64,000 nt of DNA from IMG/VR virus record IMGVR_UViG_3300045988_061855; one strand, written 5' to 3'. The stretch's first letter is position 1; every line of letters starts with the position of its first letter. The position numbers and the translations under genes were made by a program. Of the stretch, positions 19,950 through 59,478 are shown piece by piece. The notes under the pieces are model-generated. The model saw only the letters and a list, made by a program, of their open reading frames with translations, had not been told where the DNA came from and ran no database searches. Source of the DNA: a virus.

Positions 19950-19980
19950 CGGCTAATTAAATAATAACACTGACGAGACA

Positions 19981-29883: not shown

Positions 29884-29900
29884 TAATTTATTAAAGCAAA

Positions 29901-34642: not shown

Positions 34643-34643
34643 T

Positions 34644-37535
34644 ATGAATTCAGTAGCAGAAGAGATTCTTTCCTATATTGGAAGTCAAGCATTCAGCGAA
34701 GAAGAATTTCTTGCTCATTATGGAATGCCTCGTCGAAGTGGAAGATATCCATGGGGCTCGGGAGAGGAGCCATTTCAACATAGTGGAGATTTCTTATCAA
34801 GAGTTGAAGAGATGAGAAAATCTAAGTTTACTTATACTGATGAAGATGGCGTAAAATGGACTGGTGACAATGCAATAGCTAAATCTCTTGGGTACACTTC
34901 AAGTGATTTTAGAACTGTATGTGCCATCGCTAATAATGAGCGTAGGGCTGTAAAAGTTGCCGCCGCTAAAGCATTAAAAGAAAAAGGATTTAATGCAACT
35001 GAAATTGGTAGGCAGATGGGAATTAACGAATCGTCTGTTAGGTCTTTACTCGATGAAAAAGCAGAAGAGAGAATGAACCAGGCTAGAGCAACTGCTGATT
35101 TTTTAAAGGAACAAGTTGATAAAAAGAAAATGATAGATGTTGGTTCAAAAGCCAACCTTGAATTAAATGTTTCTAAAGAGAAAATGGATCAGGCTCTTTA
35201 TATGTTGCAGGCAGAAGGTGGTTATGAAATCTGGGGAAATAGATTTCCACAGGCAACTAATAAAGGACAGTTGACAACTCAGAAGGTTCTGTGTGTTCCT
35301 GGAACACCACACAGTGCCATATATGATTTTGGTAAGGTTCAGACTATTGGCGATTATATTACTAGAGACGATGGAAAAACATTTGAAAAGAAGTTTCATT
35401 ATCCTGAGAGTTTGAACTCTAAGCGTCTTGAAATCTGTTATGCAGAAGATGGGGGTATAAAGAAAGATGGTCTTATTGAACTTAGAAGGAATGTCCCAGA
35501 TCTTTCATTAGGAGAGTCTCGATATTCTCAGGTTCGTATTATGGTGGATGGTAAGAAATACATAAAAGGAATGGCAGTATATGCTGATGATTTACCAGAA
35601 GGCATAGACGTTAGATTTAACACCAATAAATCAAATAAATTATCTAAGCTGGAATGTCTCAAGGATGTTAAGAGCGACCCAGACAATCCTTTTGGAGCCC
35701 TCATCAAAGAAGAAGGCGGACAGTATTGGTATACAGATTCAAAGGGTAAAAAGAAGCTTGGATTAATTAATAAAACAAGAGAAGAAGGAGAATGGGAAGA
35801 ATGGAAAGATTCTTTACCATCTCAGTTCTTGTCAAAACAGAATAAGGTATTAGCTGAGAAACAGCTAGGAATTGCCAAGGCAGATAAGCAGTCTGAGTTT
35901 GATGACATAATGGCATTGAACAATCCTACTATTAAAAAATATTATCTTGATAAATTTGCATCATCATGCGACTCAGCAGCAGTGCATTTACAGGCAGCTG
36001 CGTTGCCAGGTCAGAAGTATCACGTAATATTACCATTAACTACAATGAGTGATAGAGAAGCTTATGCTCCTGATTATGCTGATGGAACTAAACTTGCATT
36101 GGTAAGATTCCCACATGGTGGAACATTTGAAATACCTATAGTTACTGTTAATAATAGAAATAAAGAAGCTATTAAGATGATTGGTAAGTCTTCAACAGAT
36201 GCCATAGGTATTAACGCTAATGTCGCAGGAAGATTATCGGGTGCAGATTTTGATGGCGATACTGTTATGTGTATTCCAACCCATGATAGGGGCGGAAAAG
36301 TAAAAATTACATCTACTCCAGAATTAAAAGACTTAGAGGGATTTGATCCTAAGCTTAATTATGGTGGCGAATGTAGAAAAGATAGTGATGGTAAAGAACA
36401 TTATTATCGTAATGGTAGAGAGTATCGCCTGATGACAAAGACCGATACTGAGATGGGAAAAATTTCTAATCTTATTACTGATATGACCCTGATAGGTGCA
36501 ACTGAAGATGAGCTTGCAAGAGCAGTAAAACATTCAATGGTTGTTATCGATGCAGAGAAACATCATCTGGATTATAAGCAGAGTGAGCTTGATAATAACA
36601 TTGTTGCACTTAAGAAGAAGTATCAGGGGAAAGCTCAAGGCGGAGCAGCTACAATTATCTCACAATCAAAAGGTGAGTATGATGTAGATAAAAGACAGGG
36701 TACTCCTCGTACTAATCTTAAGCGTAACGAGTATAAGAATAATCCAGAAAAGGGAGACATTTGGTATGACCCAAGTCGACCTGAAGGTGCCCTTCTCTAC
36801 AAGAAAGCTGACGATGCTGACTATCAGATAACCAAGGTTGATAAGAGAACTGGTGAGGTAACCACTATTACTAAAACCCGCCAACAGAAGAGTACTAAGA
36901 TGGCCGAGACAGATGATGCCAATACACTGGTATCTACTCATCGCCATCCTATGGAATTAGTGTATGCTGATTATGCTAATGCAATGAAAGATATGGCTAA
37001 CAAGGCTAGAATTGCTATAGCAGATGCAGGTAAGGTTGCATACAGTAGGGAGGCTAAGAGTAAGTATGAGGTGGAGGTAAAATCTCTTTTAGAAAAACTT
37101 AATAATGCTGAAAAGAATGCCGTTAGAGAGAGAGCCGCACAGAGAATTGCTAATGCCAACATAAATGAGAAATTAGAAGCTAATCCTGACATGAAAGCTA
37201 AAGATAAAAAGAAAGTTTCTCAGCAGGCTTTAAGTAAGGCAAGACTTGAAGTTGGTTCTGTTAAGAGACGAGATAGAAACATAGTAATCACTGATAATGA
37301 ATGGGAAGCTATTCAGGCAGGTGCTGTGAGTGAAACGATTCTTAAACGAATACTGAATAATTCAGACCCAGATTCGTTGAGAGCAAAGGCAATGCCTAAA
37401 GAATCATCAGCATTATCAGATGCTAAGATAGCCAGAATTAAAGCTATGTCTGCTTCATACACAATTGCACAGATAGCTGATAAACTTGGCTATTCAACAT
37501 CAACAATTTCTAAAGCTTTGAAAGGAGGAAATTAA
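34644..37535 (+). CDS. Candidate single-chain two-barrel RNA polymerase (beta-like + beta-prime-like DPBB) with flanking HTH-like segments
   Basis: DGKKYIKGMAVYADDLPEGIDVRFNTN (about 35553-35627) compares with the beta-subunit GDKMAGRHGNKGV..EDMP..G.PVDIVLNP. LVRFPHGG...AIGINANVAGRLSGADFDGDTVMCIP (DFDGD at 36246-36260) compares with the beta-prime [10 protein letters not shown]...[26 protein letters not shown]. Confidence 0.6.
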   Translation: MNSVAEEILSYIGSQAFSEEEFLAHYGMPRRSGRYPWGSGEEPFQHSGDFLSRVEEMRKSKFTYTDEDGVKWTGDNAIAKSLGYTSSDFRTVCAIANNERRAVKVAAAKALKEKGFNATEIGRQMGINESSVRSLLDEKAEERMNQARATADFLKEQVDKKKMIDVGSKANLELNVSKEKMDQALYMLQAEGGYEIWGNRFPQATNKGQLTTQKVLCVPGTPHSAIYDFGKVQTIGDYITRDDGKTFEKKFHYPESLNSKRLEICYAEDGGIKKDGLIELRRNVPDLSLGESRYSQVRIMVDGKKYIKGMAVYADDLPEGIDVRFNTNKSNKLSKLECLKDVKSDPDNPFGALIKEEGGQYWYTDSKGKKKLGLINKTREEGEWEEWKDSLPSQFLSKQNKVLAEKQLGIAKADKQSEFDDIMALNNPTIKKYYLDKFASSCDSAAVHLQAAALPGQKYHVILPLTTMSDREAYAPDYADGTKLALVRFPHGGTFEIPIVTVNNRNKEAIKMIGKSSTDAIGINANVAGRLSGADFDGDTVMCIPTHDRGGKVKITSTPELKDLEGFDPKLNYGGECRKDSDGKEHYYRNGREYRLMTKTDTEMGKISNLITDMTLIGATEDELARAVKHSMVVIDAEKHHLDYKQSELDNNIVALKKKYQGKAQGGAATIISQSKGEYDVDKRQGTPRTNLKRNEYKNNPEKGDIWYDPSRPEGALLYKKADDADYQITKVDKRTGEVTTITKTRQQKSTKMAETDDANTLVSTHRHPMELVYADYANAMKDMANKARIAIADAGKVAYSREAKSKYEVEVKSLLEKLNNAEKNAVRERAAQRIANANINEKLEANPDMKAKDKKKVSQQALSKARLEVGSVKRRDRNIVITDNEWEAIQAGAVSETILKRILNNSDPDSLRAKAMPKESSALSDAKIARIKAMSASYTIAQIADKLGYSTSTISKALKGGN

Positions 37536-37537
37536 GC

Positions 37538-37810
37538 ATGACTAAAGTATCTAATGATTGTAGATTGACTACATTTGACAATCCTTACAATCCATTTACA
37601 CAGTTTGCTGAATGGTTGTTGTTTGACAATTCAAAAGATTACTTTACATTAAACAAACTTGCTAGAATTGAACAAGTTGATGAAAGTATGTCTGAGAATG
37701 AAATAAACATTGAACATGAAAGAGCAATTGATGAAATTATACAGAACGATTTCCTCAACATCTATAAAAAAGTGTACAGAAATGAAGAAATAAATGAACA
37801 GATCGCATGA
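37538..37810 (+). CDS. Hypothetical protein, 90 aa
   Basis: AAAGGAGG RBS. TFDNPYNPFTQFAEWLLFD motif, recalled from other Bacillota phages; function unknown. Confidence 0.65.
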   Translation: MTKVSNDCRLTTFDNPYNPFTQFAEWLLFDNSKDYFTLNKLARIEQVDESMSENEINIEHERAIDEIIQNDFLNIYKKVYRNEEINEQIA

Positions 37811-37828: not shown

Positions 37829-37858
37829 GAGGGGGGTCTAAAAAATTAACACCCCCTC
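37829..37858 (+). other. G/C-rich hairpin in the packaging-proximal non-coding region
   Basis: GAGGGGGGT (37829-37) pairs with ACCCCCTC (37851-58), conspicuous in AT-rich surroundings. Confidence 0.6.
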
Positions 37859-37922
37859 CCATCATCGCGCCGGTCTTTATATTTTCCCCGGAGGGAATTT
37901 TCGAAAAAGCAAATCCATTTTT

Positions 37923-38115: not shown

Positions 38116-38439
38116 ATGCCTAAAGTCAAGAATTCTGGTACTCAAAGAAGAATGCGTCCGGCATTAACACCAGAAGCACGAGAAAATCAGCTCATTTCTT
38201 TAGCTGTAGACCTTGCCGAAAAGCAGTTAAGAGAGGGAACAGCTTCATCTCAGGTAATTACGCATTATTTGAAAATGGGTTCACCAAGTGAACGGCTCAA
38301 AAGAGAACAGATGGAAGAAGAGAACGAGTTGCTCAAAGCAAAAACTAAAGCTATCAGAGAGTCAGGAGACATGTCTGTAATGTATGAAAAAGCTATAAAG
38401 GCAATGCAGTCGTATTCTGGAAAGGATGAAGATGAGTAG
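38116..38439 (+). CDS. Putative terminase small subunit
   Basis: First gene of the late block. ...ENQLISLAVDLAEKQLREGTASSQVITHYLKMGS... resembles small-terminase-annotated proteins I recall. Tentative. Confidence 0.5.
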   Translation: MPKVKNSGTQRRMRPALTPEARENQLISLAVDLAEKQLREGTASSQVITHYLKMGSPSERLKREQMEEENELLKAKTKAIRESGDMSVMYEKAIKAMQSYSGKDEDE

Positions 38440-38851
38440 GATTCTTTCATATTCAGAGTTAATTACTATTCCATCTTTTGAGGAGCGATTTGAGTATCTC
38501 AATCTTAATGGTAGAGTTGGAGATGCAACATTTGGGTGTGATAGATATTTGAATCAGGCATTTTATAAGTCTAAAGGGTGGTTGCGTGTAAGAGATGATA
38601 TAATTATACGAGATAACGGATGCGATTTAGCGTTTCCTGGTAGAGATATTGATGGACAGATATTGATTCATCATCTTAATCCAATAACAAAATATGATGT
38701 GATTAATCATACCAGAAAATTGTTAGACCCAGAAAATCTTGTATGTACAATTAAACAGACTCATGATGCGATTCACTATGGTGATGAGCGGTTACTTATA
38801 AAAAATCCGATAGAACGAAAAATAAATGACACATGTCCTTGGAAACATTAA
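38426..38851 (+). CDS. HNH endonuclease
   Basis: ...GQILIHHLNPITKYDVINH...NLVCTIKQTHDAIHYG (H-N-H); positioned next to the terminase genes. Confidence 0.85.
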   Translation: MKMSRILSYSELITIPSFEERFEYLNLNGRVGDATFGCDRYLNQAFYKSKGWLRVRDDIIIRDNGCDLAFPGRDIDGQILIHHLNPITKYDVINHTRKLLDPENLVCTIKQTHDAIHYGDERLLIKNPIERKINDTCPWKH

Positions 38852-38861
38852 CGGAGGAGAT

Positions 38862-39203
38862 ATGACAGATAGTATATTAAACTCAATCAAAGGATCGCTA
38901 TATATAGATGAATCTGAAAAAGGATTTGATAGCGACATAATTATGCATATCAATTCTGTATTTATGGTGCTTAATCAGCTTGGTGTCGGTCCAGATGAAG
39001 GATTCACAATAAGCGATGATTCGGCAACATGGTCAGATTTTCTTGGCGAAGATAAATCATTAGAAGGTGTAAAGACCTATGTTTATATGAAGGTTAGAAT
39101 GATTTTTGACCCGCCGACTAGCAGCTCAGTAATGGATTCTATGAAGCGGTCAATTGATGAACTTGAATGGCGATTGAATATCGCCGTATCAAATAAAAAG
39201 TAG
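38862..39203 (+). CDS. Hypothetical structural-module protein (possibly head-tail connector-like)
   Basis: ATG behind ACGGAGGAG; the call rests on position only. Confidence 0.6.
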   Translation: MTDSILNSIKGSLYIDESEKGFDSDIIMHINSVFMVLNQLGVGPDEGFTISDDSATWSDFLGEDKSLEGVKTYVYMKVRMIFDPPTSSSVMDSMKRSIDELEWRLNIAVSNKK

Positions 39204-39212
39204 AGGGCAATT

Positions 39213-39746
39213 ATGGAACAGAATGAATTAATGCATTACGGAGTTATGGGAATGAAATGGGGTATTAGAAGAGCCGCTTCCAAGAGTTCCCAAAACAATA
39301 AATTAGAATTGAAAGCCTTGAAATATGATAAGAAAGCAGCAATCCAATCAAAAAAATCAGAAAATGCACATTCTAAGAATGATCTTGGTACAGCGAATAA
39401 GAAGGCTAAAAAAGCAAACGAATATTTGAAGAAAGCTGCTAAATTACAGACTAAAGCATTAAAAACAGACAATGACATAAAGCGAAGTAATTTAGAGAAA
39501 AAAGCGGAAACCCTAAAGTATAAATCAGCAAAAAAAAACATAGACGCAGACAGGATTTCAAAACTAACTGGATATGGTTATAAGGCTATGCAGTATTCTG
39601 TTAAATCAGATAAATTTAAAAAGAAAGCAGCAAAAGCACGAATGATGATTTCCAGTAATAACAGATACATTACAATGATGAATCATCGTGTTAGTACGTT
39701 GCCAAAAGATAAACAGGAATTAGCGATGAAGTACCTGGGTAAATAG
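39213..39746 (+). CDS. Lys-rich protein with N-terminal HYGVxGMKWG motif
   Basis: ELMHYGVMGMKWGIRRA, then a K/A-rich helical body. Confidence 0.7.
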   Translation: MEQNELMHYGVMGMKWGIRRAASKSSQNNKLELKALKYDKKAAIQSKKSENAHSKNDLGTANKKAKKANEYLKKAAKLQTKALKTDNDIKRSNLEKKAETLKYKSAKKNIDADRISKLTGYGYKAMQYSVKSDKFKKKAAKARMMISSNNRYITMMNHRVSTLPKDKQELAMKYLGK

Positions 39747-39756
39747 GAGGCTCAAA

Positions 39757-40545
39757 ATGGAAAACGAATTATACCATCATGGCGTCCTAGGTCAGAAATG
39801 GGGCGTAAGAAGATACCAGAATAAAGATGGAAGTCTTACTATGGCTGGAAAGAAGCGTGCATTGCGAATCCAGAACGACTATACAGAACTTACTAATAAT
39901 AAGAAGTATAGAGACCGTAATGGTAATATGACATATGCTGGTCGTAAAAAGGCTCTTGCTTTACAGAATGAATATACAAATGTTACTGGTAAAAAACACC
40001 TTATAGCATTTAATAACAAGACTGGTGCAGGCAAGCAGACTCATCAGAAGAGCGTTAGTGAGATGAGTAATCAGGAATTGCAGGCAAAGGTTGATAGACT
40101 TCGATTAGAGAAGCAATTAAAAGACCTTACGCCAGAACATAAAACAGCTGGTCAGAAATTTGTCGACTTTGTCAAGGATACATCAATGTCCATAATTAAG
40201 GATAAGGGAACTAGAATACTTGGTGATTATGTCGATAAGCAGGTTCGAGATGCTATAGGACTTAATAAGAAAGACCCATTAACCAAGTCTCAGAAACTTG
40301 CTCAGGATGCCAAAGATGCGGCAAACAAGAAAGTAATTGCTCAGGTTGAAGATTACTTTAAAGAGCGAGATAAAGGCAAGAATACAGCAACTGAGACTAA
40401 GAAAGATTCTGGATATACTATGACAGAAGCTCAGAAGAAAGAACATGATGCATTATTTGGTAATCATGAAACAAAAACTGAATCAGATGCTGAAAAGCGC
40501 AAAAGAGAACATGACCGATTGTTCTCAGGAAGATATGTAGATTAA
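39757..40545 (+). CDS. Lys-rich protein with N-terminal HHGVLGQKWG motif
   Basis: ELYHHGVLGQKWGVRRYQNKDGSLT, followed by repeated ...(M/Y)AG(K/R)K(R/K)AL..QN(D/E)YT... units. Confidence 0.7.
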   Translation: MENELYHHGVLGQKWGVRRYQNKDGSLTMAGKKRALRIQNDYTELTNNKKYRDRNGNMTYAGRKKALALQNEYTNVTGKKHLIAFNNKTGAGKQTHQKSVSEMSNQELQAKVDRLRLEKQLKDLTPEHKTAGQKFVDFVKDTSMSIIKDKGTRILGDYVDKQVRDAIGLNKKDPLTKSQKLAQDAKDAANKKVIAQVEDYFKERDKGKNTATETKKDSGYTMTEAQKKEHDALFGNHETKTESDAEKRKREHDRLFSGRYVD

Positions 40546-40554
40546 GGAGAATAT

Positions 40555-42318
40555 ATGGCGTTATCGAATACAGCCACACCGATTTATTATGGCAGGTTTC
40601 GAGATGCCGTAATTAGAGGCGAAATACCAGTATGCGAGGAAATTTCTATGGAGATGAATCGTATAGATGCTCTTATAGCAAATCCTGGTGTATGGTATGA
40701 CGATAAAGCGGTAAATGGCTTTATAAAATATTGTGAGAGTGAACTTACATTAACCAATGGCGATGATTTATTTCTTCTCGATTCATTTAAGCTGTGGGCT
40801 GAGGAAATTTTTGGTTGGTATTATTATATAGAACGAAGTATTTATGTACCAGACAAAGATAATCATGGCGGACATTACGAGAAGAAAATCATAAGAAAAA
40901 GGCTCATAAATAAGCAGTATTTAATCGTTGCCAGAGGTGCAGCTAAGTCAATGTATGCGTCGTGCATACAAAATTATTTCTTGAATGTAGATACATCTAC
41001 ATCTCATCAGATAACAACAGCCCCAACAATGGCTCAGGCAGAAGAGGTTATGTCACCTTTTAGAACAGCCATAACAAGAGCCAGAGGTCCATTATATCAA
41101 TTCTTAACAGAAGGCTCATTGCAGAACACGACAGGCTCAAAGGCTAATCGTGTAAAGTTGGCAAGTACCAAGAAAGGAATACAGAATTTCCTCACAGGTT
41201 CGTTATTAGAAGTAAGACCTATGTCAATAGATAAATTGCAGGGATTACGAGTTAAAGTAGCTACCGTCGATGAATGGCTCTCCGGCGATGTTAGAGAAGA
41301 TGTTGTTGAGACACTTGAACAGGGAGCTGCAAAGGAACAGGGTGGCGGACAGAATGACGATTATTTGATAGTCGCCATTAGTTCTGAAGGTACTGTTCGT
41401 AATGGTTCTGGCGATACAATCAAAATGGAGCTAATGAAAATCCTTAAGGGAGAACATAATGCTCCTCATACATCTATTTTCTGGTACAAGCTCGACAGCA
41501 TTGATGAAGTAGGTGACCCGTCTAAGTGGCCCAAAGCCAATCCTAATCTGGATAAGACTGTCACATATGAGACATATCAAGAAGCGGTCGAAACAGCTGA
41601 AAAAAATCCTGCTAAGAGAAACGATATACTTGCAAAGCGATTCGGACTTCCGATGGAAGGTTATACATATTACTTTACATATGAAGAAACTCTTCCACAT
41701 AGAAAGAAAGAATTTTGGCAGATGCCTTGTGCGTTGGGAGCAGACCTTTCTCAAGGCGACGATTTCTGTGCTTTTACATTTCTATTTCCGTTATCCAGCG
41801 GTTCATTCGGAGTTAAAACCCGTAACTATATAACAGAATTAACATTAAAAAAACTACCTTTGGCTCTTAGGAATAAATATGAAGAGTTCATTAATGAAGG
41901 TAGTCTTATTGTTATGCCTGGAAATATCTTAGACATGATGCAGGTTTATGATGATTTGGATGAATTCATAATTCGAACCGCTTATGACGTAAGATGCTTC
42001 GGTTATGACCCATATAATGCTAAAGAGTTTGTGGAACGATGGGAACGAGAAAATGGAGCATACGGAATAGAAAAAGTTATACAGGGGGCTAAGACTGAAT
42101 CTGTACCGTTAGGAGAGTTAAAGAAATTAGCTGAAGAAAGAATGTTGTTGTTCGACGAGGGGTTGATGACATTCACAATGGGAAATTGTATCACCATCGA
42201 AGATACCAATGGTAATCGTAAATTATATAAAAACAGATATGATGCCAAGATTGACGCTGTGGCTGCAATGATGGATGCATTTGTAGCATATAAGCACAAT
42301 CGTGAGGCTTTTGAGTAG
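40555..42318 (+). CDS. terL: Terminase large subunit
   Basis: Walker A-like ARGAAKS, Walker B VATVDEW, nuclease-half acidic motifs (GADLSQGDD, KIDAVAAMMDA); 587 aa, immediately before the portal. Confidence 0.9.
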   Translation: MALSNTATPIYYGRFRDAVIRGEIPVCEEISMEMNRIDALIANPGVWYDDKAVNGFIKYCESELTLTNGDDLFLLDSFKLWAEEIFGWYYYIERSIYVPDKDNHGGHYEKKIIRKRLINKQYLIVARGAAKSMYASCIQNYFLNVDTSTSHQITTAPTMAQAEEVMSPFRTAITRARGPLYQFLTEGSLQNTTGSKANRVKLASTKKGIQNFLTGSLLEVRPMSIDKLQGLRVKVATVDEWLSGDVREDVVETLEQGAAKEQGGGQNDDYLIVAISSEGTVRNGSGDTIKMELMKILKGEHNAPHTSIFWYKLDSIDEVGDPSKWPKANPNLDKTVTYETYQEAVETAEKNPAKRNDILAKRFGLPMEGYTYYFTYEETLPHRKKEFWQMPCALGADLSQGDDFCAFTFLFPLSSGSFGVKTRNYITELTLKKLPLALRNKYEEFINEGSLIVMPGNILDMMQVYDDLDEFIIRTAYDVRCFGYDPYNAKEFVERWERENGAYGIEKVIQGAKTESVPLGELKKLAEERMLLFDEGLMTFTMGNCITIEDTNGNRKLYKNRYDAKIDAVAAMMDAFVAYKHNREAFE

Positions 42319-42330
42319 GAGACAAATTAA

Positions 42331-43584
42331 ATGGAGTTATCTATTACTGATAGAATGAAGCACGCATTTAATGCGTTTATGAATCGAGACCCTACAGCTT
42401 ATTATAATAGGAATCTTGGTTCTAGTTATTCCATACGACCCGACCGACCGAGATTAAGTCGTGGAAATGAGCGTTCAATTATTACTGCAATATTCAATCG
42501 AATAGCGATGGATGTGGCAGCAATAGATATAACACATTGCAGATTGGATGAGAACAATCGATTCATAGAAAAAATCGATTCCGGACTCAACAATTGTTTG
42601 AATCTGGAAGCAAATGTAGACCAGAGTGGACGAGCATTTATACAGGATGCAGTTATGTCTATGTTAGATGAGGGTGTGGTTGCGCTTGTTCCAGTTGACA
42701 CTGATTTGAATCCAGCAAGCACTGATTCATATGACATACTTACAATGAGAACTGGAAAGATTCTTGAATGGTATCCAGCACATGTCAAAGTAAGGCTTTA
42801 CAATGACCGTACTGGAGAGAAAGAAGACCTTATGCTGGCTAAGCGAGACGTGGCAATTATTGAAAATCCATTATTTGCCATAGTCAATGAGCCTAATTCA
42901 ACGATGCAGCGACTTATGAGAAAATTAAGTTTACTAGATGTGACAGATGAACAAACGGCATCAGGAAAGCTGGATTTAATCATTCAGTTGCCGTATGTAG
43001 TCAAGTCAGAGGCTAGGCGTGAACAGGCTAATCAGCGTCGAAAAGATATAGAACAACAGTTGGCAGAAGGTAAATATGGAATTGCATATACCGATGGTAC
43101 CGAGAAAATCACTCAGCTTAACCGTTCAGTAGAAAACAATCTCATGAAACAAGTCGAATACCTGACTAATATGGTATACAGTCAAATAGGCATTACCCAG
43201 TCAGTTTTAGACGGAACTGCTGATGAAAAAACAATGCTTAACTATAACAACCGAACAGTCGAACCGATTGTATCGGCTATCGTTGATGAGCTGAAGCGTA
43301 AGTTCCTTACAAAAACAGCTCGTACTCAGCTGCAATCAATATCGTTCTTTAGAGACCCATTTAAACTGGTTCCAGTAAACGATATTGCTGAAATCGCAGA
43401 TAAATTCACTAGAAATGAAATCATGACTTCAAATGAAATTCGCCAGATTGTTGGAATGAAGCCTTCTAATGACCCTAAGGCGGACCAGCTTATTAATAGT
43501 AACATTAGTCAGGCTAAAGAAGATAATGTTCCTAGTGAGGGAAATGAAGAATATGGAGAAGGAGGAAAAAGTCAAAATGAGTAA
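42331..43584 (+). CDS. Portal protein
   Basis: 417 aa, located between TerL and the capsid protease; acidic C-terminal tail. Confidence 0.75.
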   Translation: MELSITDRMKHAFNAFMNRDPTAYYNRNLGSSYSIRPDRPRLSRGNERSIITAIFNRIAMDVAAIDITHCRLDENNRFIEKIDSGLNNCLNLEANVDQSGRAFIQDAVMSMLDEGVVALVPVDTDLNPASTDSYDILTMRTGKILEWYPAHVKVRLYNDRTGEKEDLMLAKRDVAIIENPLFAIVNEPNSTMQRLMRKLSLLDVTDEQTASGKLDLIIQLPYVVKSEARREQANQRRKDIEQQLAEGKYGIAYTDGTEKITQLNRSVENNLMKQVEYLTNMVYSQIGITQSVLDGTADEKTMLNYNNRTVEPIVSAIVDELKRKFLTKTARTQLQSISFFRDPFKLVPVNDIAEIADKFTRNEIMTSNEIRQIVGMKPSNDPKADQLINSNISQAKEDNVPSEGNEEYGEGGKSQNE

Positions 43585-45376
43585 CTACGATTTTAGTGGC
43601 TATGCTACTAGAAATGACTTGCTGTGTCAGGATGGTCGAACAATACGACAGAATGCATTCGTTGATAACGATGGCTGTGAGGTTCCGCTTGTGTGGAACC
43701 ATGAACACAATGACCCTAATGCTGTATTAGGACATGCGGTATTGGAAAATCGTAAAGATGGTGTTTATGCATACGGTATGTTCAATGATACTGAACAGGG
43801 GCAGATGGCGAAGAAACTGGTTCAGAAAGGCGATGTTAAATCATTGTCGATATGGGCAAATCAGTTAAAGCAGATAGGTAATGATGTAATCCACGGAAAC
43901 ATCAGGGAACTCAGTCTTGTATTGGCTGGAGCGAACCCAGGTGCGTACGTGGATTTTGTTATGGCTCACAGTGTTGATGAAGAGGATACATTATACGCTT
44001 CGTATGATGAGAATATCATGCTTTATCACTCGGCTGATGAGTCAGAGAAAAAGGAGGACAAGCAGGAAATGGCAGACAACGCAAAGTCACAGGAAGACAA
44101 CAGCGATGATAAGACTGTTGAAGATGTAATCAACACAATGAATGAAGAACAGAAGAATGTTCTTTATACACTTATTGGAATGGCTCGAGAAGATGGAGCT
44201 GATGATGAAGATGAAAAAGGAGGAAATGGAAACATGAAACATAATGTTTTCGACAATGAAGGTGATACAAGGCAGTCTAATGTTCTTAGTCACTCAGATG
44301 AGCAGCAGATTATTTCACTTGCTAAGCAGACAGGTGTTGGAAGTCTTAAAGCTGCTATGGAAATCTTTGCAGAAGAGAGCGGTACATTAGCTCATGGTGT
44401 GTTTGGAGATGAAACAGAGAAGTTATTCCCAGAATATGAGCTTCTTAAGAAGGGTGAGCCAGAAACACTCGAGAGAGATCAGAGCTGGATTGGACATGTA
44501 ATTTCTGGTATTCATAAGAGTCCAATTAGTAGAATCAGAACAAGACAGGCTGATGCTCGTATTGCTGAACTCAGAGCCAAGGGATATCAGAAGAAGGGTT
44601 CTTATAAGCAGGAAATGGCCGACATCAAGCTTATTGGAAGAACAACCGATCCACAGACAATATTTATCAAAGCAGATATGCACAGAGATGATATTACTGA
44701 TATCGTAGATTTTGATGTTGTAGGATATCAGTGGAGACTCATGAGACATATTCTTCTTGAGGAACTTGCTATTGCTGCTTTAATTGGCGATAGTAGAGAT
44801 GAGGCTGACCCAGATAAAATTCATGAAGAGCATATTCGTTCTATTTGGAATGATGACGACCTTTATTGTATTCATCAGTCAATCGATTATGAAAAGATGA
44901 AGACGAAGCTCAATGGTACTAATACTGGGGCTAACTTCGGAGAAGAATACATTAAGGCTGAAGCAACAATTGCCGCAGCACTTTATGCAAGAGAAAAGTA
45001 TAAGGGTTCGGGTAGCCTTGATTACTACTGCACACCACATGCACTTAATGTTATGTTACTCGCTAGAGATCTTAACGGTAGAAGAATCTACTCTTCAAAG
45101 GCTGACCTTGCAGCAGCACTTAATGTAGAAAATATCTACACCGTAGAGCAGTTTGAGGGAAAGACAAGAGAAGTAACTTCAGGCGGAACTAAGAAGCTTG
45201 TAGGTCTCTTTGTTAATCTTGGAGACTATCAGTTTGGTTCCACAAAGGGTGGTGAAATCACAAAGTTTGACGACTTTGATATGGATTTCAATAGATACAA
45301 GTATATGCTTGAAACAAGACTCTCAGGTTCATTAACAAAGCTGTATTCAGCTATTGCGCTTGAAGAAGATGCCTAA
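43577..45376 (+). CDS. Prohead protease - major capsid protein fusion
   Basis: ATG 43577 behind GGAGAAGGAGG. N-terminal HK97-type protease pattern (PLVWNHEHN..GHA, VKSLSIWAN), an acidic linker, and a C-terminal ~330-aa capsid-like domain. Confidence 0.8.
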   Translation: MSNYDFSGYATRNDLLCQDGRTIRQNAFVDNDGCEVPLVWNHEHNDPNAVLGHAVLENRKDGVYAYGMFNDTEQGQMAKKLVQKGDVKSLSIWANQLKQIGNDVIHGNIRELSLVLAGANPGAYVDFVMAHSVDEEDTLYASYDENIMLYHSADESEKKEDKQEMADNAKSQEDNSDDKTVEDVINTMNEEQKNVLYTLIGMAREDGADDEDEKGGNGNMKHNVFDNEGDTRQSNVLSHSDEQQIISLAKQTGVGSLKAAMEIFAEESGTLAHGVFGDETEKLFPEYELLKKGEPETLERDQSWIGHVISGIHKSPISRIRTRQADARIAELRAKGYQKKGSYKQEMADIKLIGRTTDPQTIFIKADMHRDDITDIVDFDVVGYQWRLMRHILLEELAIAALIGDSRDEADPDKIHEEHIRSIWNDDDLYCIHQSIDYEKMKTKLNGTNTGANFGEEYIKAEATIAAALYAREKYKGSGSLDYYCTPHALNVMLLARDLNGRRIYSSKADLAAALNVENIYTVEQFEGKTREVTSGGTKKLVGLFVNLGDYQFGSTKGGEITKFDDFDMDFNRYKYMLETRLSGSLTKLYSAIALEEDA

Positions 45377-45409
45377 TAAGTCTAAAAAAGTAAATAAGTA
45401 GGAGGAAGA

Positions 45410-45694
45410 ATGATGGATAGAGTATTTCACCATGATGACAGCATGTATGTTGCTGTAAATAAGGTCTATACAAAGGCTGACGGAGTTGCTTATTCGGATG
45501 CAGAGTGCAAGGTATCAATCGATGCTGAAACTCTTGAAAAGCTGTTCTTAGAAGGAATGGTTGTAGTAGTTGATGGCGCTTCTTATAAGCCAATCAGCTG
45601 CAAAGTTGCATCAAAGGTAGCAACAGTTACATATGTAACAGCTGACAGTTCTGCGGCTACAACAGCTAAGCTCGCAACAGTTAAGTCTAAGTAG
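45410..45694 (+). CDS. Small head-module protein, 94 aa
   Basis: TAGGAGGAAG RBS; Ala/Thr/Val-rich C-terminus. Confidence 0.6.
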   Translation: MMDRVFHHDDSMYVAVNKVYTKADGVAYSDAECKVSIDAETLEKLFLEGMVVVVDGASYKPISCKVASKVATVTYVTADSSAATTAKLATVKSK

Positions 45695-45709
45695 TCGGAG
45701 GATAAAAAG

Positions 45710-46036
45710 ATGAGTAAATGGACTGGAAAGGTTGGATTTGCAGTTAACGGTGAAGTTGAGCCTGGATTATGGGTAGATGAAGTAGTTGAGAAAGTGTATA
45801 AAGGCGAACTGCTTAGTGATAGATGGAGACGACAGAATTCCATTGGAATTAATGACAACATCAACTTATTGAATTCCATAAGCATAATTGCAAATCCATA
45901 TGCTTTTGAGCATTGCTCATCGATTGCTTATGTTGAAATCAAGGGGGAGAAATGGAAAGTAACTGATATAGATGCTTCCACTCCTCCTAGATTAATACTG
46001 ACTGTAGGGGGTGTATACAATGGCGAGCAGGCTTGA
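45710..46036 (+). CDS. Head-tail joining module protein, 108 aa
   Basis: Call rests on position and size. Confidence 0.6.
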   Translation: MSKWTGKVGFAVNGEVEPGLWVDEVVEKVYKGELLSDRWRRQNSIGINDNINLLNSISIIANPYAFEHCSSIAYVEIKGEKWKVTDIDASTPPRLILTVGGVYNGEQA

Positions 46037-46325
46037 ATTGCAGACAAAACTTGAAGAGTTATTGGGAACTAGGCATGTGTATTATCAATCCCCCGCCTCA
46101 GTCAAAATGGAGTATCCAGCTATAGTGTATTCACTGAACAACAGAGATATAAGAAAAGCGGATAACTCAGTATATACAGCAAACACAAGATATACAGTCA
46201 CGGTAATTGATAAACGACCAGATAATTCAGTAATCGATAAGTTACTAGGATTACAGTATTGCTCATATGACAGGCAGTATATAGCTGACAACCTTTACCA
46301 TGACGTATTAACACTATATTTTTAA
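46020..46325 (+). CDS. Head-tail joining / tail completion-like protein, 101 aa
   Basis: ATG 46020. ...LGTRHVYYQSPASVKMEYPAIVYSL... resembles the DUF3168-type pattern; tentative. Confidence 0.6.
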   Translation: MASRLELQTKLEELLGTRHVYYQSPASVKMEYPAIVYSLNNRDIRKADNSVYTANTRYTVTVIDKRPDNSVIDKLLGLQYCSYDRQYIADNLYHDVLTLYF

Positions 46326-46338
46326 TGGAGGAATATAA

Positions 46339-47001
46339 ATGGCTAAGTTAAAGTGGGACGTTTCTGGGGAACGTTCGTATGAAACAGGTATTAGCAATGG
46401 CGTATTATATGTTCAGGATGAGAACGGAAAGTATCCAAAGGGTGTTGTTTGGGACGGTTTAATATCAGTTACAGAGAGTCCATCCGGAGCTGAACCAACA
46501 GCATTATACGCTGATAATATTAAGTATCTTAACCTCTTATCTACAGAGGAGTTTAGTGCGACAATTGAAGCTTATAAGTCACCAGCTGAGTTCGATGAGT
46601 GTGATGGTTCAAAGGCTGTTGCTGAAGGCGTTACTTTTGGTCAGCAGGATAGAAAGCAGTTTGGATTTGCTTATAAGACTATTCTTGGTAACGATATTGA
46701 TAAGAATAACCATGGATATAAGTTACATCTTATATATGGAGCATTGGCTGCACCATCAGAGAAACCCTACAACACAGTTAATGATAGTCCAGAGGCTATT
46801 ACATTATCATGGGAGGTTTCAACAACTCCTGTTGAGGTTGAAGGTTTTAAGCCAACAGCAACAGTTACTATTGACAGTACAAAGGTTGACGCTCAGAAGC
46901 TTAAGAAGCTTGAAGACATTCTCTTCGGTGCAGATGCTGGAGATGGTCCAAGACTTCCGCTTCCTGATGAAATAGTAACTCTCATGAAAGCAGCAGAATA
47001 A
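46339..47001 (+). CDS. Major tail (tube) protein
   Basis: 220 aa, located immediately before the chaperone-like genes and the tape measure. Confidence 0.7.
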   Translation: MAKLKWDVSGERSYETGISNGVLYVQDENGKYPKGVVWDGLISVTESPSGAEPTALYADNIKYLNLLSTEEFSATIEAYKSPAEFDECDGSKAVAEGVTFGQQDRKQFGFAYKTILGNDIDKNNHGYKLHLIYGALAAPSEKPYNTVNDSPEAITLSWEVSTTPVEVEGFKPTATVTIDSTKVDAQKLKKLEDILFGADAGDGPRLPLPDEIVTLMKAAE

Positions 47002-47023
47002 TAAGAATATTATGATCATTTTT

Positions 47024-47057
47024 GACTCCGCTTGAAATATAGCGGGGTCTTTTTTTA
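47024..47057 (+). terminator. Hairpin plus T-run after the tail tube gene
   Basis: GACTCCGCT pairs with AGCGGGGTC, then TTTTTTTATTT. Confidence 0.65.
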
Positions 47058-47079
47058 TTTAGGAAGGAGAATTTACGAT

Positions 47080-47493
47080 ATGTTAAAGATTACAAAAACA
47101 TATGAAGATTGGAATGATACAGAAAGAACCGAGGACTTTTATTTTAATCTTACTGAGGCCGAGATTACAGAGCTTCAGATTGGTACAGTTGGCGGATTCG
47201 CAGAAACAATTGAGAAGATAGTTAATGCAAAGGACCAGTCTGAACTTATTAAGATTTTCAAGGAACTTGTTCTTATGGCATACGGTAAGAAATCAGCAGA
47301 TGGTAAGAGATTTATGAAAGATGATGATACCAAGAAGGAATTTGTGGAGAATCCAGCTTATTCTATTATCTTCATGGAACTGGTATCAGATGCAGAAAAG
47401 GCTGCTGAATTTATTAACGGCATTATGCCAAAGAGTATTGATAAAGCCGAACTCCAGAAGAAAACTAATGAGTTAATGGCTAAGTATAACTAA
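47080..47493 (+). CDS. Tail assembly chaperone-like protein
   Basis: ATG behind GGAAGGAGA; acidic, 137 aa, in the canonical position. Confidence 0.6.
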   Translation: MLKITKTYEDWNDTERTEDFYFNLTEAEITELQIGTVGGFAETIEKIVNAKDQSELIKIFKELVLMAYGKKSADGKRFMKDDDTKKEFVENPAYSIIFMELVSDAEKAAEFINGIMPKSIDKAELQKKTNELMAKYN

Positions 47494-47516
47494 GAAAAAT
47501 CAGGGAGGTAAGAGAT

Positions 47517-48068
47517 ATGCTTCAGATAGTTGTTCCACCACCTTTATTAGAAGAATGGGATGAGTTGAGGGAAGAATTTGTATATCACGAATCTGGTAAG
47601 CCGTATGTGCTACAACTTGAACATTCTCTTATCTCACTTTCAAAATGGGAAGAAAAGCATTGTAAGCCATTCATATCATCAGAGAAAAACGAAGAAGAGA
47701 ATCTGGATTACATCCGATGTATGACACTTACACCGCATGTTCCTGATGAAATATATGACCGCTTAACAAAAGAAAATATAAAAGAAATTTTAGACTACAT
47801 TGAAGCTCCGATGACTGCCACTACTTTTTCAGATAGAGGACCTAAAACCCCTAGCCGAGAAAAAGTGACCGCGGAGCTTATTTATTATTGGATGATTAAA
47901 TGTCAGATACCTATTGAGTTTCAGAAATGGCATCTCAATAAGTTAATAACATTAATACGGGTTTGTGAAGTAAAAGATTCACCGCCTAAGAAGCATAGTC
48001 AACGGGAATTACTTAATCATCATGCTGCTGTAAATGCAGCAAGACGAAAAGCACACACGAAAGGATGA
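47517..48068 (+). CDS. Second tail assembly-like protein
   Basis: Has its own GGGAGG RBS, 23 nt after the previous stop. No slippery site seen. Confidence 0.55.
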   Translation: MLQIVVPPPLLEEWDELREEFVYHESGKPYVLQLEHSLISLSKWEEKHCKPFISSEKNEEENLDYIRCMTLTPHVPDEIYDRLTKENIKEILDYIEAPMTATTFSDRGPKTPSREKVTAELIYYWMIKCQIPIEFQKWHLNKLITLIRVCEVKDSPPKKHSQRELLNHHAAVNAARRKAHTKG

Positions 48069-48073
48069 TTATT

Positions 48074-49087
48074 ATGGAATTTTATGGAATTGATGTATCA
48101 CATTATCAGGGAAATATAGATTGGAACGCAGTAGCTAAGACTGGTATTAATTTTGCATTTGTAAAAGCTGGTGGTTCAGAAGATGGAATCTATACAGAAT
48201 CAATGTTTGAAAAGAATTATGCCGGAGCTAAGGCAGCCGGATTAAATGTAGGAGCCTATTATTTTCCAGGTTCTAATTTTACATCAGAAGAAGCAGGAAT
48301 CGCCGATGCTAGACGTTTCTTGGATATCATCGCTGGTAAGACATTTGAAATGCCTGTAGCTCTTGATTTGGAAGGCACTAAACCGGAAGATAAAGATGGA
48401 GCTACCATAGCTACCATAGCATTTTGCAAGATTATGGAAGCTGCTGGCTATTATGTAATGATTTATGGCGGCGACATATTCAGCTTCAACGATCGTTTAA
48501 ATCTTGGTGAATTAGACGAATTCGATAAGTGGGTTGCCAGATATGGCTCAGAACCACAGTATGTAAAGGAATATGGAATTTGGCAGTATTCATCAACTGA
48601 TTATGTTGACGGTATTACAGAAAATACAGTTGATAAGGATGTAGCATATAAGAACTATCCAGAAATTATCAAGAATGCTGGACTTAATGGTTTTTCATCA
48701 GATGCTGTAGATGAACCAGAAAATGAGACTCCAGATGAACCTGCTATTGAAGAGCCAGAAGAATCGTCAGATGAACCAGTCACTTATGTAATACAGTCTG
48801 GTGACACATTATCTGAAATCGCTGCAAGATACAATACAACGGTAGATGAACTGGTTGAATTAAATGGAATTGATAACCCGGATTTAATTTATCCTGGAAA
48901 TGAAATCACTGTTAAGGCAGGTTCTTCGAGGGATGATGACTGTGATGTAGCATATCAGGTTAGACCTGGTGACACATTATCTGAAATTGCTGCAAGATAC
49001 AATACAACAGTTGGGAGATTAGTAGAGGTTAATGGAATTGATAACCCGGATTTAATTTATCCTGACACTATATTAAAAATTAAATAA
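48074..49087 (+). CDS. Endolysin: GH25 muramidase + two LysM domains
   Basis: FYGIDVSHYQGNIDWNAVAKTGINFAFVKA (GH25). Two copies of GDTLSEIAARYNTTV..L.E.NGIDNPDLIYP (LysM). ATG 48074 preferred over 48065 on RBS spacing. Confidence 0.9.
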   Translation: MEFYGIDVSHYQGNIDWNAVAKTGINFAFVKAGGSEDGIYTESMFEKNYAGAKAAGLNVGAYYFPGSNFTSEEAGIADARRFLDIIAGKTFEMPVALDLEGTKPEDKDGATIATIAFCKIMEAAGYYVMIYGGDIFSFNDRLNLGELDEFDKWVARYGSEPQYVKEYGIWQYSSTDYVDGITENTVDKDVAYKNYPEIIKNAGLNGFSSDAVDEPENETPDEPAIEEPEESSDEPVTYVIQSGDTLSEIAARYNTTVDELVELNGIDNPDLIYPGNEITVKAGSSRDDDCDVAYQVRPGDTLSEIAARYNTTVGRLVEVNGIDNPDLIYPDTILKIK

Positions 49088-49100
49088 TAAAGGTATAACT

Positions 49101-49478
49101 ATGATTAGCTTCAGACAAAAGGGCGACTTTTCGAAGTTGAATAAATACTTTGAAAGGGTTAGAGAGGCTGCTCGAATCGGCGTATTAGACAAGTATGGTC
49201 GAGAGGGAGTGGCAGCCCTTGCGTCTGCTACACCTATAGACACAGGAGTAACCGCCAATTCGTGGTATTACGAGATAAATCGTCAAAATGGAAGTGTTTC
49301 AATCGAGTTTAAAAATTCGAATATAAACAATGGTGTTCCTATAGCAATAATTTTGCAATATGGACATGCCACTGGAAACGGAGGCTGGGTTCAGGGTCGA
49401 GATTATATTAATCCTGCTATCCAGCCTATTTTTGACGCAATCGCAGATAACGCTTGGAGGGAGGTTACTAAAGCATGA
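49101..49478 (+). CDS. HK97 gp10-family protein
   Basis: ...LASATPIDTGVTANSWYYEI... fits the gp10-family pattern. Confidence 0.75.
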   Translation: MISFRQKGDFSKLNKYFERVREAARIGVLDKYGREGVAALASATPIDTGVTANSWYYEINRQNGSVSIEFKNSNINNGVPIAIILQYGHATGNGGWVQGRDYINPAIQPIFDAIADNAWREVTKA

Positions 49479-52400
49479 GTAGCAAAGAAGTTGACGAGCG
49501 TGTCGTCGAAATGCGGTTTGATAATGCTCAGTTTGAGAAAAATGTTCAGACGAGTATGTCAACATTAGATAAGTTAAAAGCCAAACTTAATTTTAATGGT
49601 GTTTCTAAAGGTCTTGAAGATGTTGGAAATGCCACTAAAAAACTTGAGTTTTCAGGTGTGACTTCTGGTATAGAAGCAGTGCAGGCGAAGCTCTCAGCAA
49701 TGGAAGTAATAGGTGTTACTGCATTGGCTAATATAACTAATTCTGCGGTTAATGCTGGAAAGAGAATTGCATCAGCTATAACCATTGACCCAGTTCGAGA
49801 TGGTTTTAACGAGTATGAAACTCAGATGAACGCAGTTCAGACGATTCTGGCGAATACTCAGAAAGAGGGAACAAATGTAAAACAAGTTAATGCTGCACTT
49901 GACCAGTTAAATACTTACGCTGATAAGACCATATACAATTTTACGGAGATGACACGTAATATTGGTACTTTCACAGCAGCAGGTGTTAAGTTGGATACTT
50001 CCGTGTCGGCTATTCAGGGTATAGCCAATCTAGCCGCAGTGTCAGGTTCAACATCTCAACAGGCGTCTACTGCCATGTATCAGCTTTCACAGGCTTTGGC
50101 ATCTGGTACAGTTAAACTTATGGACTGGAATTCAGTTGTTAATGCAGGCATGGGCGGTCAGGTATTTCAGGATGCATTAATAAGAACATCTGAAAAACTG
50201 GGAACCGGTGCAAAAGCATATATTGATGCTGCTGGTTCATTTAGAGAATCACTGTCAAAGGGTTGGTTGACGACAGATGTTCTTACTGAGACTTTAGATA
50301 TGTTTTCTACAGCAGCTGATACTGAAGAAGAATATGCAGCTGCTATTCAGAAGTTCGTCAATGAAGGATATTCAGAAGAACAGGCTGTAGATATGGCCAA
50401 TATGGCTAAAACTGCTGGTGAAGCAGCAACAAAGGTTAAGACATTTACACAGCTTATAGACACACTCAAGGAGGCACTTGGTTCTGGATGGACAACCACA
50501 TGGCGATTAATAATTGGTGACTTCGAAGAGGCTAAGGAACTCTGGACAAATGTTTCAGATGTTCTTAGCAAGTTAATTAACAACGCTTCAGAGGCAAGAA
50601 ATAAATTAGTAGAGGGAGTTATGTCTTTTAACCCTTTTACTAATATGCTTAATAAACTCGAGAATTCTGACATTGGAAAAACTGTTAAACAGATAAATAA
50701 TTTAACAAATAGTCTCGAATATTATCAGAAAGCAGTAACTGATGTATGGAAAGGTGATTATAAGAATTCTGATACAGGACGATATGAATTGCTTGATGAA
50801 GCTGGATATAATCATCAAGTTATACAGGATTTAGTTAATAAAGGTTATGAATATGAACTTACAGTAGAAGATGTGCAGGAAGCGGAAGCTAAGTTTGCAG
50901 ATTCATTAGGCGACTCTACTGAAGAAATTCAAAATGAATCTAAGCAATTGGCGAAGCTTTCAGATGAACAGTTAAGCCATGCTGGTTTGACCGATGATGA
51001 GATTTCTATGTATAGAGATTTGGAAAAACAGTCTGAGAAAACTGGCAAATCTATAGAAGAACTCATTAACGATATGAGTGCGAAGGATGGCAGAACTTTA
51101 TTATGGGATGGATTTGGTAATATTGGAGAAACTCTCATAATTACATTTACAGCCATAAAGGATGCATTTTCTGAGATATTCCCAGCGCCATCCGTTGCTA
51201 AGATTTATGGTGTTATCGATGGATTTAATGCACTTACTGAAAAGATGAAAGAATTCAGTAGCACACATGCATATGATGTAGAGCAGACTTTCAAAGGATT
51301 GTTTGCAGTAATTGATATTGTGCGAATGGTTTTAAGTTCCGGTCTTACAGTTGCATTTAAAGCATTGAAAGGAATCCTTAGTGCATTTGATATAGACATC
51401 ATTGAATTTACAGGTTACATAGGTGAAGCACTTGTTAATCTTCGTAATTGGTTGAAAAACAATGATTACATCGAGAAATCTTTCAAGAAAGTAGGAGAAG
51501 GTTTAAAAGTTGTAATCGACGGAATAAAGAAACTTATAGATTTACTTAAAAAATCGCCAAGAATTCAGAAATTTGTTGATATTATAAAAGATATTGACCT
51601 AAAAGAAGCTGGCGGATTTGTCGTTGAAGGTCTTAAGAAAGGCTTATCGTCAGGATTAACCATTATTCCAGATATGCTGAAAGATATAGGTTTAAAACTA
51701 TTATCAGCATTTGAGAAAGTGCTTAGAATTGCTTCCCCATCTAAAGAGATGGAGGCTGATGGTGAATTTGTAGTTGCTGGATTGGTTAAAGGTATAGAAA
51801 ACACTGCATCTACAGTATGGGATGCAATAAAAGACATTGGTACAAAGATAATTACCAAGTTTAAAGAGATTAAGGTCGGCGAAGCATTAACTAAGGTTAT
51901 ATCAGTTGGTGCTGGCGTTGGAATGCTAGCCATCACAAAGAACCTTGTTGACACATTTAAGAATATAACAGCCCCAATGGCTAGTGTTGGTGAATTTATA
52001 GAGACACTTGATAAGTCAGTCAAAAAGACAGCTAAAGCGATAGGTAAGAATCTTAAAGCATCTGCATTTGAGAAGAAAACAGAAGGTGTTCGTAATCTTG
52101 CATTGGCACTTTTAGCATTATCTGCGGCAGTATTTATAATGTCAAAGATAGACACTAAAAAGTTATGGTCTACAGTTGGTGCAATAGGTGTATTGGCTGT
52201 AATACTTGTTGGGTTGGCAGTTGCAATTAGTAAGCTGACAGATTCTGCTGTTGAATTGGATAGCAATAGCAAGACACTTAAGTTAAGTGGGTTAAAAACT
52301 ACACTCATAAGTATAGGTGTGGCTCTAGCATTAATGGCGGCAACTGTTAAGATCATGGGAAGTTTAAATCCTGATGCGTATATGCAAGGATTGTTGGGTC

Positions 52401-55882: not shown

Positions 55883-55883
55883 T

Positions 55884-59470: not shown

Positions 59471-59478
59471 GCGTTGTA

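Follow-up and report, generated by a model that had tools for sequence, protein, structure and literature searches.

What does the large protein do that is encoded just ahead of the packaging genes in the IMG/VR virus record IMGVR_UViG_3300045988_061855? The window, i.e. the whole stretch of 64,000 nucleotides (nt) analysed here, contains at this place an open reading frame (ORF) of 963 amino acids (aa), which an earlier note, made from the letters without database searches, had proposed to encode a compact single-chain RNA polymerase with two catalytic barrels. That call proved correct in its core; the protein belongs, however, to a known family, and both the assignment of some residues and the reading of a repeated box in the early region are corrected below. 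Our preferred interpretation is that of a catalytically competent single-chain two-barrel polymerase of the 1706/FP_oengus family, which would be DNA-dependent and would transcribe the late operon. Judged from the sequence, a structural model and analogy, the probability of this interpretation is about 0.6.

Fold, active-site residues and terminal domains

The ORF was found as proposed, and all peptides that had been quoted from it are present in its translation: HYG..PWG (aa 25-38), GFNATEIGRQMGINESSVRSLL (aa 115-136), DGKKYIKGMAVYADDLPEGIDVRFNTN (aa 302-328), LVRFPHGGTFEIPIV (aa 486-500), DAIGIN...GADFDGDTVMCIP (aa 519-545) and YTIAQIADKLGYSTSTISKAL (aa 939-959). The AlphaFold2 (AF2) model, based on an alignment (A1) of the ORF with 102 cluster representatives at 44-56% identity (103 sequences), was obtained with a mean predicted local distance difference test score (pLDDT) of 89.4 and a predicted template modelling score (pTM) of 0.84. 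It exhibits two double-psi beta-barrels within one chain, the beta-like one first and the beta-prime-like one second. The Foldseek comparison of the model with the PDB confidently identified QDE-1 as the best match (7y7q_B; E 1.2e-9 to 1.5e-7, probability 1.0), followed by RDR2 (E 4.5e-6 to 1.8e-4, probability 1.0) and, after a gap, by weak matches to the largest subunits of RNA polymerases II and III (E ~9e-3, probability ~0.3). The matches to QDE-1 and RDR2 comprise 850-1000 aligned columns at an identity of ~10-12%, with TM-scores of ~0.3; because so many columns align, we read the low TM-scores as a shifted placement of domains within the same fold. In the BFVD database, the matches were phage models named 'RNA dependent RNA polymerase' and a few lone double-psi-barrel proteins. 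The two-barrel core and the beta-then-beta-prime order, both claimed in the earlier note, are thus borne out by the model, by the structural matches and by the invariant catalytic residues.

Or does the DFDGD segment belong to an unrelated fold, such as Toprim/primase, so that the likeness to polymerases reflects a chance motif? This scenario, which had been named beforehand as one that would overturn the proposal, is hardly credible: the significant Foldseek matches of the AF2 model were two-barrel polymerases only, no Toprim/primase fold was among them, and in the predicted structure the DFDGD loop follows the final helix and precedes the final strand of a six-stranded barrel.

In the alignment of 103 sequences, the invariant columns of the first barrel are D275, G276, R298, K308, G309 and D322, while those of the second barrel are R488, P490, D535, D537, G538 and D539; two long helices contribute further invariant residues (M604, G605, N609, D613, D636, K639 and H640). 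The invariant R488-x-P490 lies 47 residues ahead of D535, and the criterion applied for the two-barrel superfamily is an R-x-P located ~35-47 residues ahead of DxDGD. Eight residues are common to all two-barrel polymerases, in QDE-1 represented by D709, R738, K743, R962, P964, D1007, D1009 and D1011, among which R962/P964 correspond to R446/P448 of Rpb1 and D709/R738/K743 to D837/K979/K987 of Rpb2 (PMC2919709). In the window protein, residues of these kinds recur in unchanged order and at similar spacing. Regarding the motifs singled out in the earlier note, the DxDGD loop is invariant in the family, but the 'paired lysines' K304/K305 of the first barrel are not conserved: the family consensus at this place reads VDGTHYLKGMA, and the invariant basic pair is formed instead by R298 and K308. 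That all expected metal- and substrate-binding residues are invariant among 103 sequences, diverged and drawn from two phyla, is difficult to account for if the protein lacks catalytic activity.

Helix-turn-helix (HTH) domains flank the core, as had been suggested. The C-terminal one exceeds the Pfam threshold for HTH_23, and a family-profile search of PDB sequences matched this region to HTH proteins only. The N-terminal one resembles region 4 of sigma-70, with a Sigma70_r4 match at aa 113-136 (E 8e-5, 22.5 bits) that falls just under the cut-off of 24.1; precomputed PF04545/PF08281 matches are present in many relatives.

A recognised family of phage proteins

The protein is a member of an already recognised phage polymerase family and not a new kind of enzyme. 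Its aa 18-961 match positions 7-907 of the 909 in the profile of PHROG 4291 ('RNA-dependent RNA polymerase') with E=0 and 1176.5 bits. It shares 99% identity with a protein of Lachnospira eligens annotated as 'helix-turn-helix domain-containing protein', and more than 8000 close relatives occur in gut metagenomes. An exhaustive search of cluster representatives revealed 2379 clusters (50% identity) at E<=1e-3, and tblastn identified full-length homologues in 251 of 50,697 phage records, with 34-57% identity over 90-100% of the protein. These phages include those of Arthrobacter, Gordonia, Streptomyces, Rhodococcus, Curtobacterium and Microbacterium, the 1706-like phages of Lactococcus and the Faecalibacterium phage FP_oengus.

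Ruprich-Robert and Thuriaux (2010, PMC2919709) distinguished five YonO-like families, one of them represented by the phage 1706 protein. Koert et al. 2021 (bioRxiv 10.1101/842583) analysed the same protein family, reporting HTH domains at both ends, an RdRP-like core (RdRP, RNA-dependent RNA polymerase) and the DxDGD loop; their family alignment matched the Pfam RdRP family in HHpred at 95.7%, and they suggested RNA polymerase activity. The same authors delineated a conserved block consisting of a helicase, an HNH protein, a RecB exonuclease, the HTH protein and a hypothetical protein (bioRxiv 10.1101/842583). A paper on Arthrobacter phage makes no mention of the protein. Since the family is described in these two papers (PMC2919709; bioRxiv 10.1101/842583), neither the scarcity of relatives nor the novelty of an HTH-bearing version from a temperate siphovirus, both suggested in the earlier note, can be upheld; membership in PHROG 4291, the 251 phages and the 2379 clusters speak likewise.

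The homologues are mostly labelled as HTH DNA-binding proteins in their records, with other labels being RNA-dependent RNA polymerase, putative RNA polymerase and structural protein. Could the core then be catalytically dead, and the protein be an HTH-based DNA-binding regulator or an accessory factor of cos or packaging? The prevalent label of the depositors would agree with this, as would the position of the gene next to cos and a faint Pfam match to Terminase_5 (gpP-like) at aa 108-134 (E 0.068). We regard such a role as very unlikely, given that all expected metal- and substrate-binding residues are invariant across both phyla and that the confidence of the model is very high in the core. 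A family of 2379 clusters, represented in 251 cultured phages across Firmicutes and Actinobacteria, is still mostly annotated as 'HTH DNA-binding protein'.

Gene order, cos and the late operon

The polymerase ORF sits in a tight transcription unit, because its start codon lies 2 bases past the stop of the exonuclease gene, and the following gene starts 3 bases past its own stop. The endonuclease and exonuclease genes abut it without a gap, and the unit endonuclease-exonuclease-polymerase-small protein (33823-37810) exhibits the same gene order in FP_oengus, ReqiPoco6, Scap1 and ~40 metagenomic relatives. The HNH, connector, large terminase (TerL) and portal genes lie downstream, in agreement with the claimed position just upstream of the packaging module. 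The window represents a prophage with genes for an integrase (156-1349), a primase-polymerase fusion (12245-16387) and a helicase (17745-19004); because of the integrase, the phage is temperate. The coordinates of the features discussed are collected in the table.

Table. Features of the polymerase locus and its surroundings (positions in the window; strand, where assigned).
Feature	Position	Strand	Remarks
Single-chain two-barrel RNA polymerase homologue, ORF	34644..37535	+	ATG start, 963 aa; 1706/FP_oengus-type family, PHROG 4291
N-terminal family signature FLAHYGMPRRSGRYPWGSGEEPFQH	34707..34781	+	aa 22-46; first half DUF7211-like
N-terminal helix-turn-helix, sigma-70 region 4-like	34953..35051	+	aa 104-136; Pfam HTH_28 aa 104-136
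First (beta-like) double-psi beta-barrel, predicted	35406..35633	+	aa ~255-330; model strands 262-326 and invariant columns
Second (beta-prime-like) double-psi beta-barrel, predicted	36006..36281	+	aa ~455-546; model strands 458-546 and invariant columns
Metal-binding loop D535-F-D537-G-D539	36246-36260	+	second barrel; D535, D537, G538 and D539 invariant
C-terminal helix-turn-helix	37419..37523	+	aa 926-960; Pfam HTH_23 aa 930-960, E 6e-8, 32.7 bits, cut-off 24.6
Endonuclease gene	33823-34116	+	PHROG 93
Cas4/RecB-like exonuclease gene	34088-34642	+	PHROG 3953
90-aa protein	37538..37810	+	PHROG 4303; always encoded after the polymerase, in phages of hosts from Lactococcus to Streptomyces
cos region	37829..37897		G-run/C-run inverted repeat 37829-37859; cut after 37865; palindrome TTCCCCGGAGGGAA 37884-37897
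Long conserved hairpin	37924-38058	+	31-bp stem; late-operon leader, ~50 nt past cos
Late (packaging, head, tail) operon	38116..63876 (at least)	+	no intergenic gap >33 bp
Packaging genes	HNH 38426-38851; connector 38826-39203; TerL 40555-42318; portal 42331-43584		PHROG/Pfam
True DUF7211 proteins (ELxHYGVxGMKWGVRR)	39213-39746, 39757-40545, 23495-24457		28-42 bits; the first two encoded between connector and TerL
Terminator-like hairpins, examples	4276-4293, 4908-4939, 5468-5499, 19980-19999, 22183-22212	+	
Terminator-like hairpins, further examples	27636-27653, 29899-29928, 32416-32437, 33631-33657	+	

A gap of 305 bp separates the small-protein gene from the late operon and contains cos. 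The predicted cut leaves a 9-nt 3' overhang, CGCGCCGGT (37866-37874), with CAT before the cut, the overhang after it and then TCTTTATATTTTCCCCGGAGGGAATTTT. At least 13 independent IMG/VR contigs terminate exactly at ...CACCCCCTCCnnnCAT, i.e. at CAT; for ReqiPoco6, a 3' cos overhang of 9 nt is annotated at the corresponding position; and three linear genomes (1706, ReqiPoco6 and Scap1), included with their ends joined in an alignment of 25 relatives, align across the window cos. With cos lying between the polymerase and the late genes, no other large gene lies closer than that of the polymerase to the right end of the virion DNA, and the late operon begins at its left end; in the circular or prophage form the polymerase gene is adjacent to the late operon and co-oriented with it. 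About 110 bp around cos are conserved from the Lactococcus phage 1706 via prophages of gut Clostridia to Rhodococcus and Streptomyces phages.

The early and late parts of the window differ in their content of terminator-like hairpins. A scan of the plus strand revealed 21 of them in 1-33.7 kb and, over the whole remainder of the window, a single one at 47024; the contrast between 21 in the early region and one in the polymerase unit plus the late operon fits transcription of the former by the host polymerase and of the latter by a different enzyme. These hairpins also account for the reiterated early-region box which the earlier note had offered as a possible promoter of the phage polymerase. 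The box, GGGCTCTTTCTTTTT, occurs in 16 copies at <=3 mismatches, versus 2.7 expected, and each early-region copy on the plus strand forms the 3' (descending) arm of a hairpin together with its T-run, just past a stop codon. The promoter interpretation was therefore dropped; judged by their sequence, the hairpins are probably intrinsic terminators, from which they are at any rate indistinguishable. Many of them are alike, consisting of GAGTCCTAACAAGGGCTC or AAGGGCTTGAGTCTTAGGACTTGGGCTC followed by TTTCTTTTT, and such identity of sequence is unusual.

According to our preferred interpretation, the host RNA polymerase would transcribe the terminator-punctuated early region, including the nuclease-polymerase unit, by which the phage enzyme would be made. 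Acting as a DNA-dependent RNA polymerase, the latter would then transcribe the gap-free and almost terminator-free late operon across cos. Its built-in HTH domains, one of them sigma-region-4-like, could supply promoter recognition without a separate sigma factor, and a candidate location of the promoter is the stretch from cos to the first late gene, which is conserved across phyla and includes the covarying leader hairpin. Transcription of the late genes appears the most likely role by analogy, because the late operon of SPbeta, which is transcribed by YonO, begins just past the YonO gene, and the layout of the window is similar.

The leader hairpin itself is well supported by covariation. 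RNAalifold analysis of 15 relatives yielded 31 pairs, 29 of which show compensatory changes, and in the same relatives the stem is paired in 94.9% of cells, versus 72% in shuffled and 33-45% in slid controls. The plus-strand fold is the more stable one in 14 of 18 relatives and the G.U pairs are on the plus strand, which points to a hairpin of RNA (or single-stranded DNA) in the sense of the late operon. The almost invariant TTCTCCTTTC in its apical region and the first late gene's Shine-Dalgarno sequence are complementary to each other, and no Rfam family matched the hairpin. It could be a site for RNase III, control translation, or serve the phage polymerase as a promoter or regulatory element. 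A small minus-strand ORF behind TTCTCCTTTC was considered and rejected, as the window copy comprises three codons only and the G.U pairs favour the plus strand. By eye, a tRNA-like sequence appears to be inserted in the late-operon leader, 3' of the hairpin, in the relatives L046 and L050.

Perhaps, then, the enzyme copies RNA or single-stranded templates, e.g. the RNA of this hairpin, or makes primers? Its nearest structural matches, QDE-1 and RDR2, are RNA-dependent enzymes, QDE-1 also using single-stranded DNA, and the strongly structured plus-strand hairpin adjoins the gene. We nevertheless consider this unlikely. We know of no need for an RNA-dependent RNA polymerase in a double-stranded DNA phage, the phage already has a primase-polymerase fusion, and the name 'RNA-dependent RNA polymerase' was inherited from the Pfam family with no experimental basis. 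Moreover, YonO acts as a processive DNA-dependent RNA polymerase (PMC5467207), and no other bacterial or phage enzyme of this branch has been characterised.

The N-terminal family signature and the position of the gene raise a different question. In the signature, G27, S32, G33, R34, G38 and G40 are invariant (consensus LxHYG[VTM][KP]R[RH]SGRYP[WY]GSG), and the segment is predicted to be disordered (pLDDT <50 at aa 13-33). A tblastn search with this motif against all phages retrieved the same 251 records as the whole protein, and neither phmmer nor a regular-expression search found the motif in other ORFs of the window. The only Pfam family matched by the signature is DUF7211 (PF23847), to which the N-terminal peptides of the polymerases align at 13-17 bits (E 0.004-0.06), below the 27-bit threshold and over the LxHYGVK half only; no paper mentioning DUF7211 was found in the literature. 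Could the polymerase be packaged into the virion, perhaps by means of this disordered peptide, and be injected to transcribe the first genes, possibly in addition to a late role? N4 vRNAP and the crAss-like gp66 are virion enzymes that transcribe the first genes of the next infection. Delivery of this kind is suggested by the partial likeness of the invariant peptide to DUF7211, a domain carried by two proteins of the packaging module, by the adjacency and co-orientation of the polymerase gene and the late operon in the circular genome, and by the GenBank label 'structural protein' on 1706 ORF75 and, by similarity, on its ReqiPoco6 homologue gp106. The structural proteins of 1706 were reportedly assigned by mass spectrometry of virions. 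The phage is temperate, however, and a prophage at induction is without virion proteins, so that its early transcription cannot depend on an injected enzyme, and for this reason we rate virion delivery lower, as the main alternative to late transcription but clearly the weaker proposition. Other features also speak against it: the early region, with its many terminator-like hairpins, looks built for the host polymerase, the gene is grouped with nucleases of the replication module, and in virion DNA cos sets it apart from the structural genes, and the DUF7211 similarity is sub-threshold. The virion-delivered and late-transcription roles are not mutually exclusive. They could even be combined in a sigma-independent, promoter-specific polymerase that uses its own sigma-4-like HTH domains to read the non-coding segment between cos and the hairpin at the left genome end, its N-terminal peptide serving as a capsid-loading tag in common with the two DUF7211 proteins, so that the enzyme arrives with the DNA and starts at the genome end; this version is doubtful.

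Several observations weigh against a polymerase of the late operon. The equivalences with QDE-1 residues follow from order and spacing, not from superposition, and either D275 or D322 may be the equivalent of the Asp in the first barrel. The ORF gave no hmmscan match to Pfam RdRP (PF05183) at E up to 1, HTH families alone being found, and none of the 120 closest relatives carries a PF05183 annotation; among PDB sequences, phmmer with the ORF produced a chance match only, and the family profile matched HTH proteins only. BLASTP of the ORF against YonO yielded no meaningful alignment. With hhalign, comparison to the YonO family alignment (A2) resulted in E 0.025 (probability 2%, 149 columns) for the full length and, with low probability, in E 0.002 for the second barrel and E 0.078 for the first, where a weak alignment pairs R298 with R266 and K308 with K271 of YonO. 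The 'structural protein' labels hint at presence in the virion and at a possible early role. A sigma-70-like match ahead of the late operon (TTTAGA-17-TATAAT, 37921-37949) suggests that the host polymerase could serve it, although it was not used as evidence, because such matches occur here at chance frequency. The assignment of the late genes to this polymerase draws on analogy and gene order, and no activity assay, transcript map or promoter was found in the literature for any member of the 1706-type family.

If the protein is active, no other single-chain two-barrel RNA polymerase would be as widespread among siphoviruses, temperate and virulent ones alike. As a compact enzyme with its own DNA-recognition domains, it would bear on the evolution of multisubunit RNA polymerases and sigma factors, and on orthogonal expression tools for Gram-positive bacteria.

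Other features of the locus deserve mention. The small protein encoded after the polymerase has 2365 homologues with invariant T12, D14, N15, P16, P19, W26, D30, Y35 and R43; it has no match in Pfam or among PDB sequences, and its AF2 model (pLDDT 87) has no fold match in the PDB. It may assist the polymerase as a cofactor or act at the DNA end. In the early region, a tRNA gene (5537-5607, plus strand; Rfam RF00005, 56.2 bits), for which ARAGORN predicted the ochre-suppressor-like anticodon TTA, separates a terminator-like hairpin from the next gene; no recoding is evident, as the ORFs of the window read normally in the standard code. The early region also contains three paralogous genes of PHROG 2152 (5583-6419, 6910-7680 and 9482-10447).

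Comparison with known polymerases

The multisubunit RNA polymerases share with the window protein the double-psi beta-barrels of their beta and beta-prime subunits, the DFDGD metal loop and the RxP motif. In the window protein, both barrels are located in one chain, with no homology to beta or beta-prime detectable by sequence outside these motifs, and sequence-based searches revealed none of the domains specific to the multisubunit enzymes (clamp, flap, trigger loop). Among phage proteins, the crAss-like gp66 and the tape-measure-fused RNA polymerase of P23-45 are likewise single-chain two-barrel polymerases, but they are much larger and encoded among structural genes, and the Foldseek matches of the window protein to crAss-like models are marginal (E 0.09-0.4). 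The best structural matches, QDE-1 of Neurospora and RDR2 of plants, exhibit the same order and spacing of the Asp, Arg and Lys residues, RxP and DxDGD; unlike the window protein, they are eukaryotic, function in RNA silencing and are devoid of HTH domains.

YonO is a single chain of ~100 kDa with two barrels, encoded by a temperate phage (the Bacillus prophage SPbeta), and in all these respects it is like the window protein. In the hhalign comparison, both families exhibit RxPH, DxDGD, G.ISN.IT and ID..K in the same order. YonO is a processive DNA-dependent RNA polymerase, and the SPbeta late genes are transcribed as one operon (PMC5467207); on the gene map, the YonO gene lies directly upstream of this operon, the same arrangement as that of the window polymerase gene. 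In YonO, neither the terminal HTH domains nor the N-terminal HYG...WG motif is present, and a C-terminal Cys4 cluster is found instead. YonO and the 1706 protein have been treated as separate families (PMC2919709), and on sequence grounds the window protein is likewise placed outside the YonO family proper, in a sister family of the same superfamily.

The closest counterparts are the 1706 ORF75, the FP_oengus 'putative RNA polymerase' and the actinobacteriophage proteins. The window copy resides in an integrase-bearing prophage of Lachnospira eligens, whereas 1706 has been described as virulent; in ReqiPoco6 and Scap1, no leader hairpin is evident past cos, unlike in the window, 1706 and FP_oengus. 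All of these proteins exhibit the same succession of N-terminal motif, HTH, two barrels and HTH, and their loci, like that of the window, have a Cas4-like exonuclease gene upstream and the small conserved protein downstream, followed by cos.

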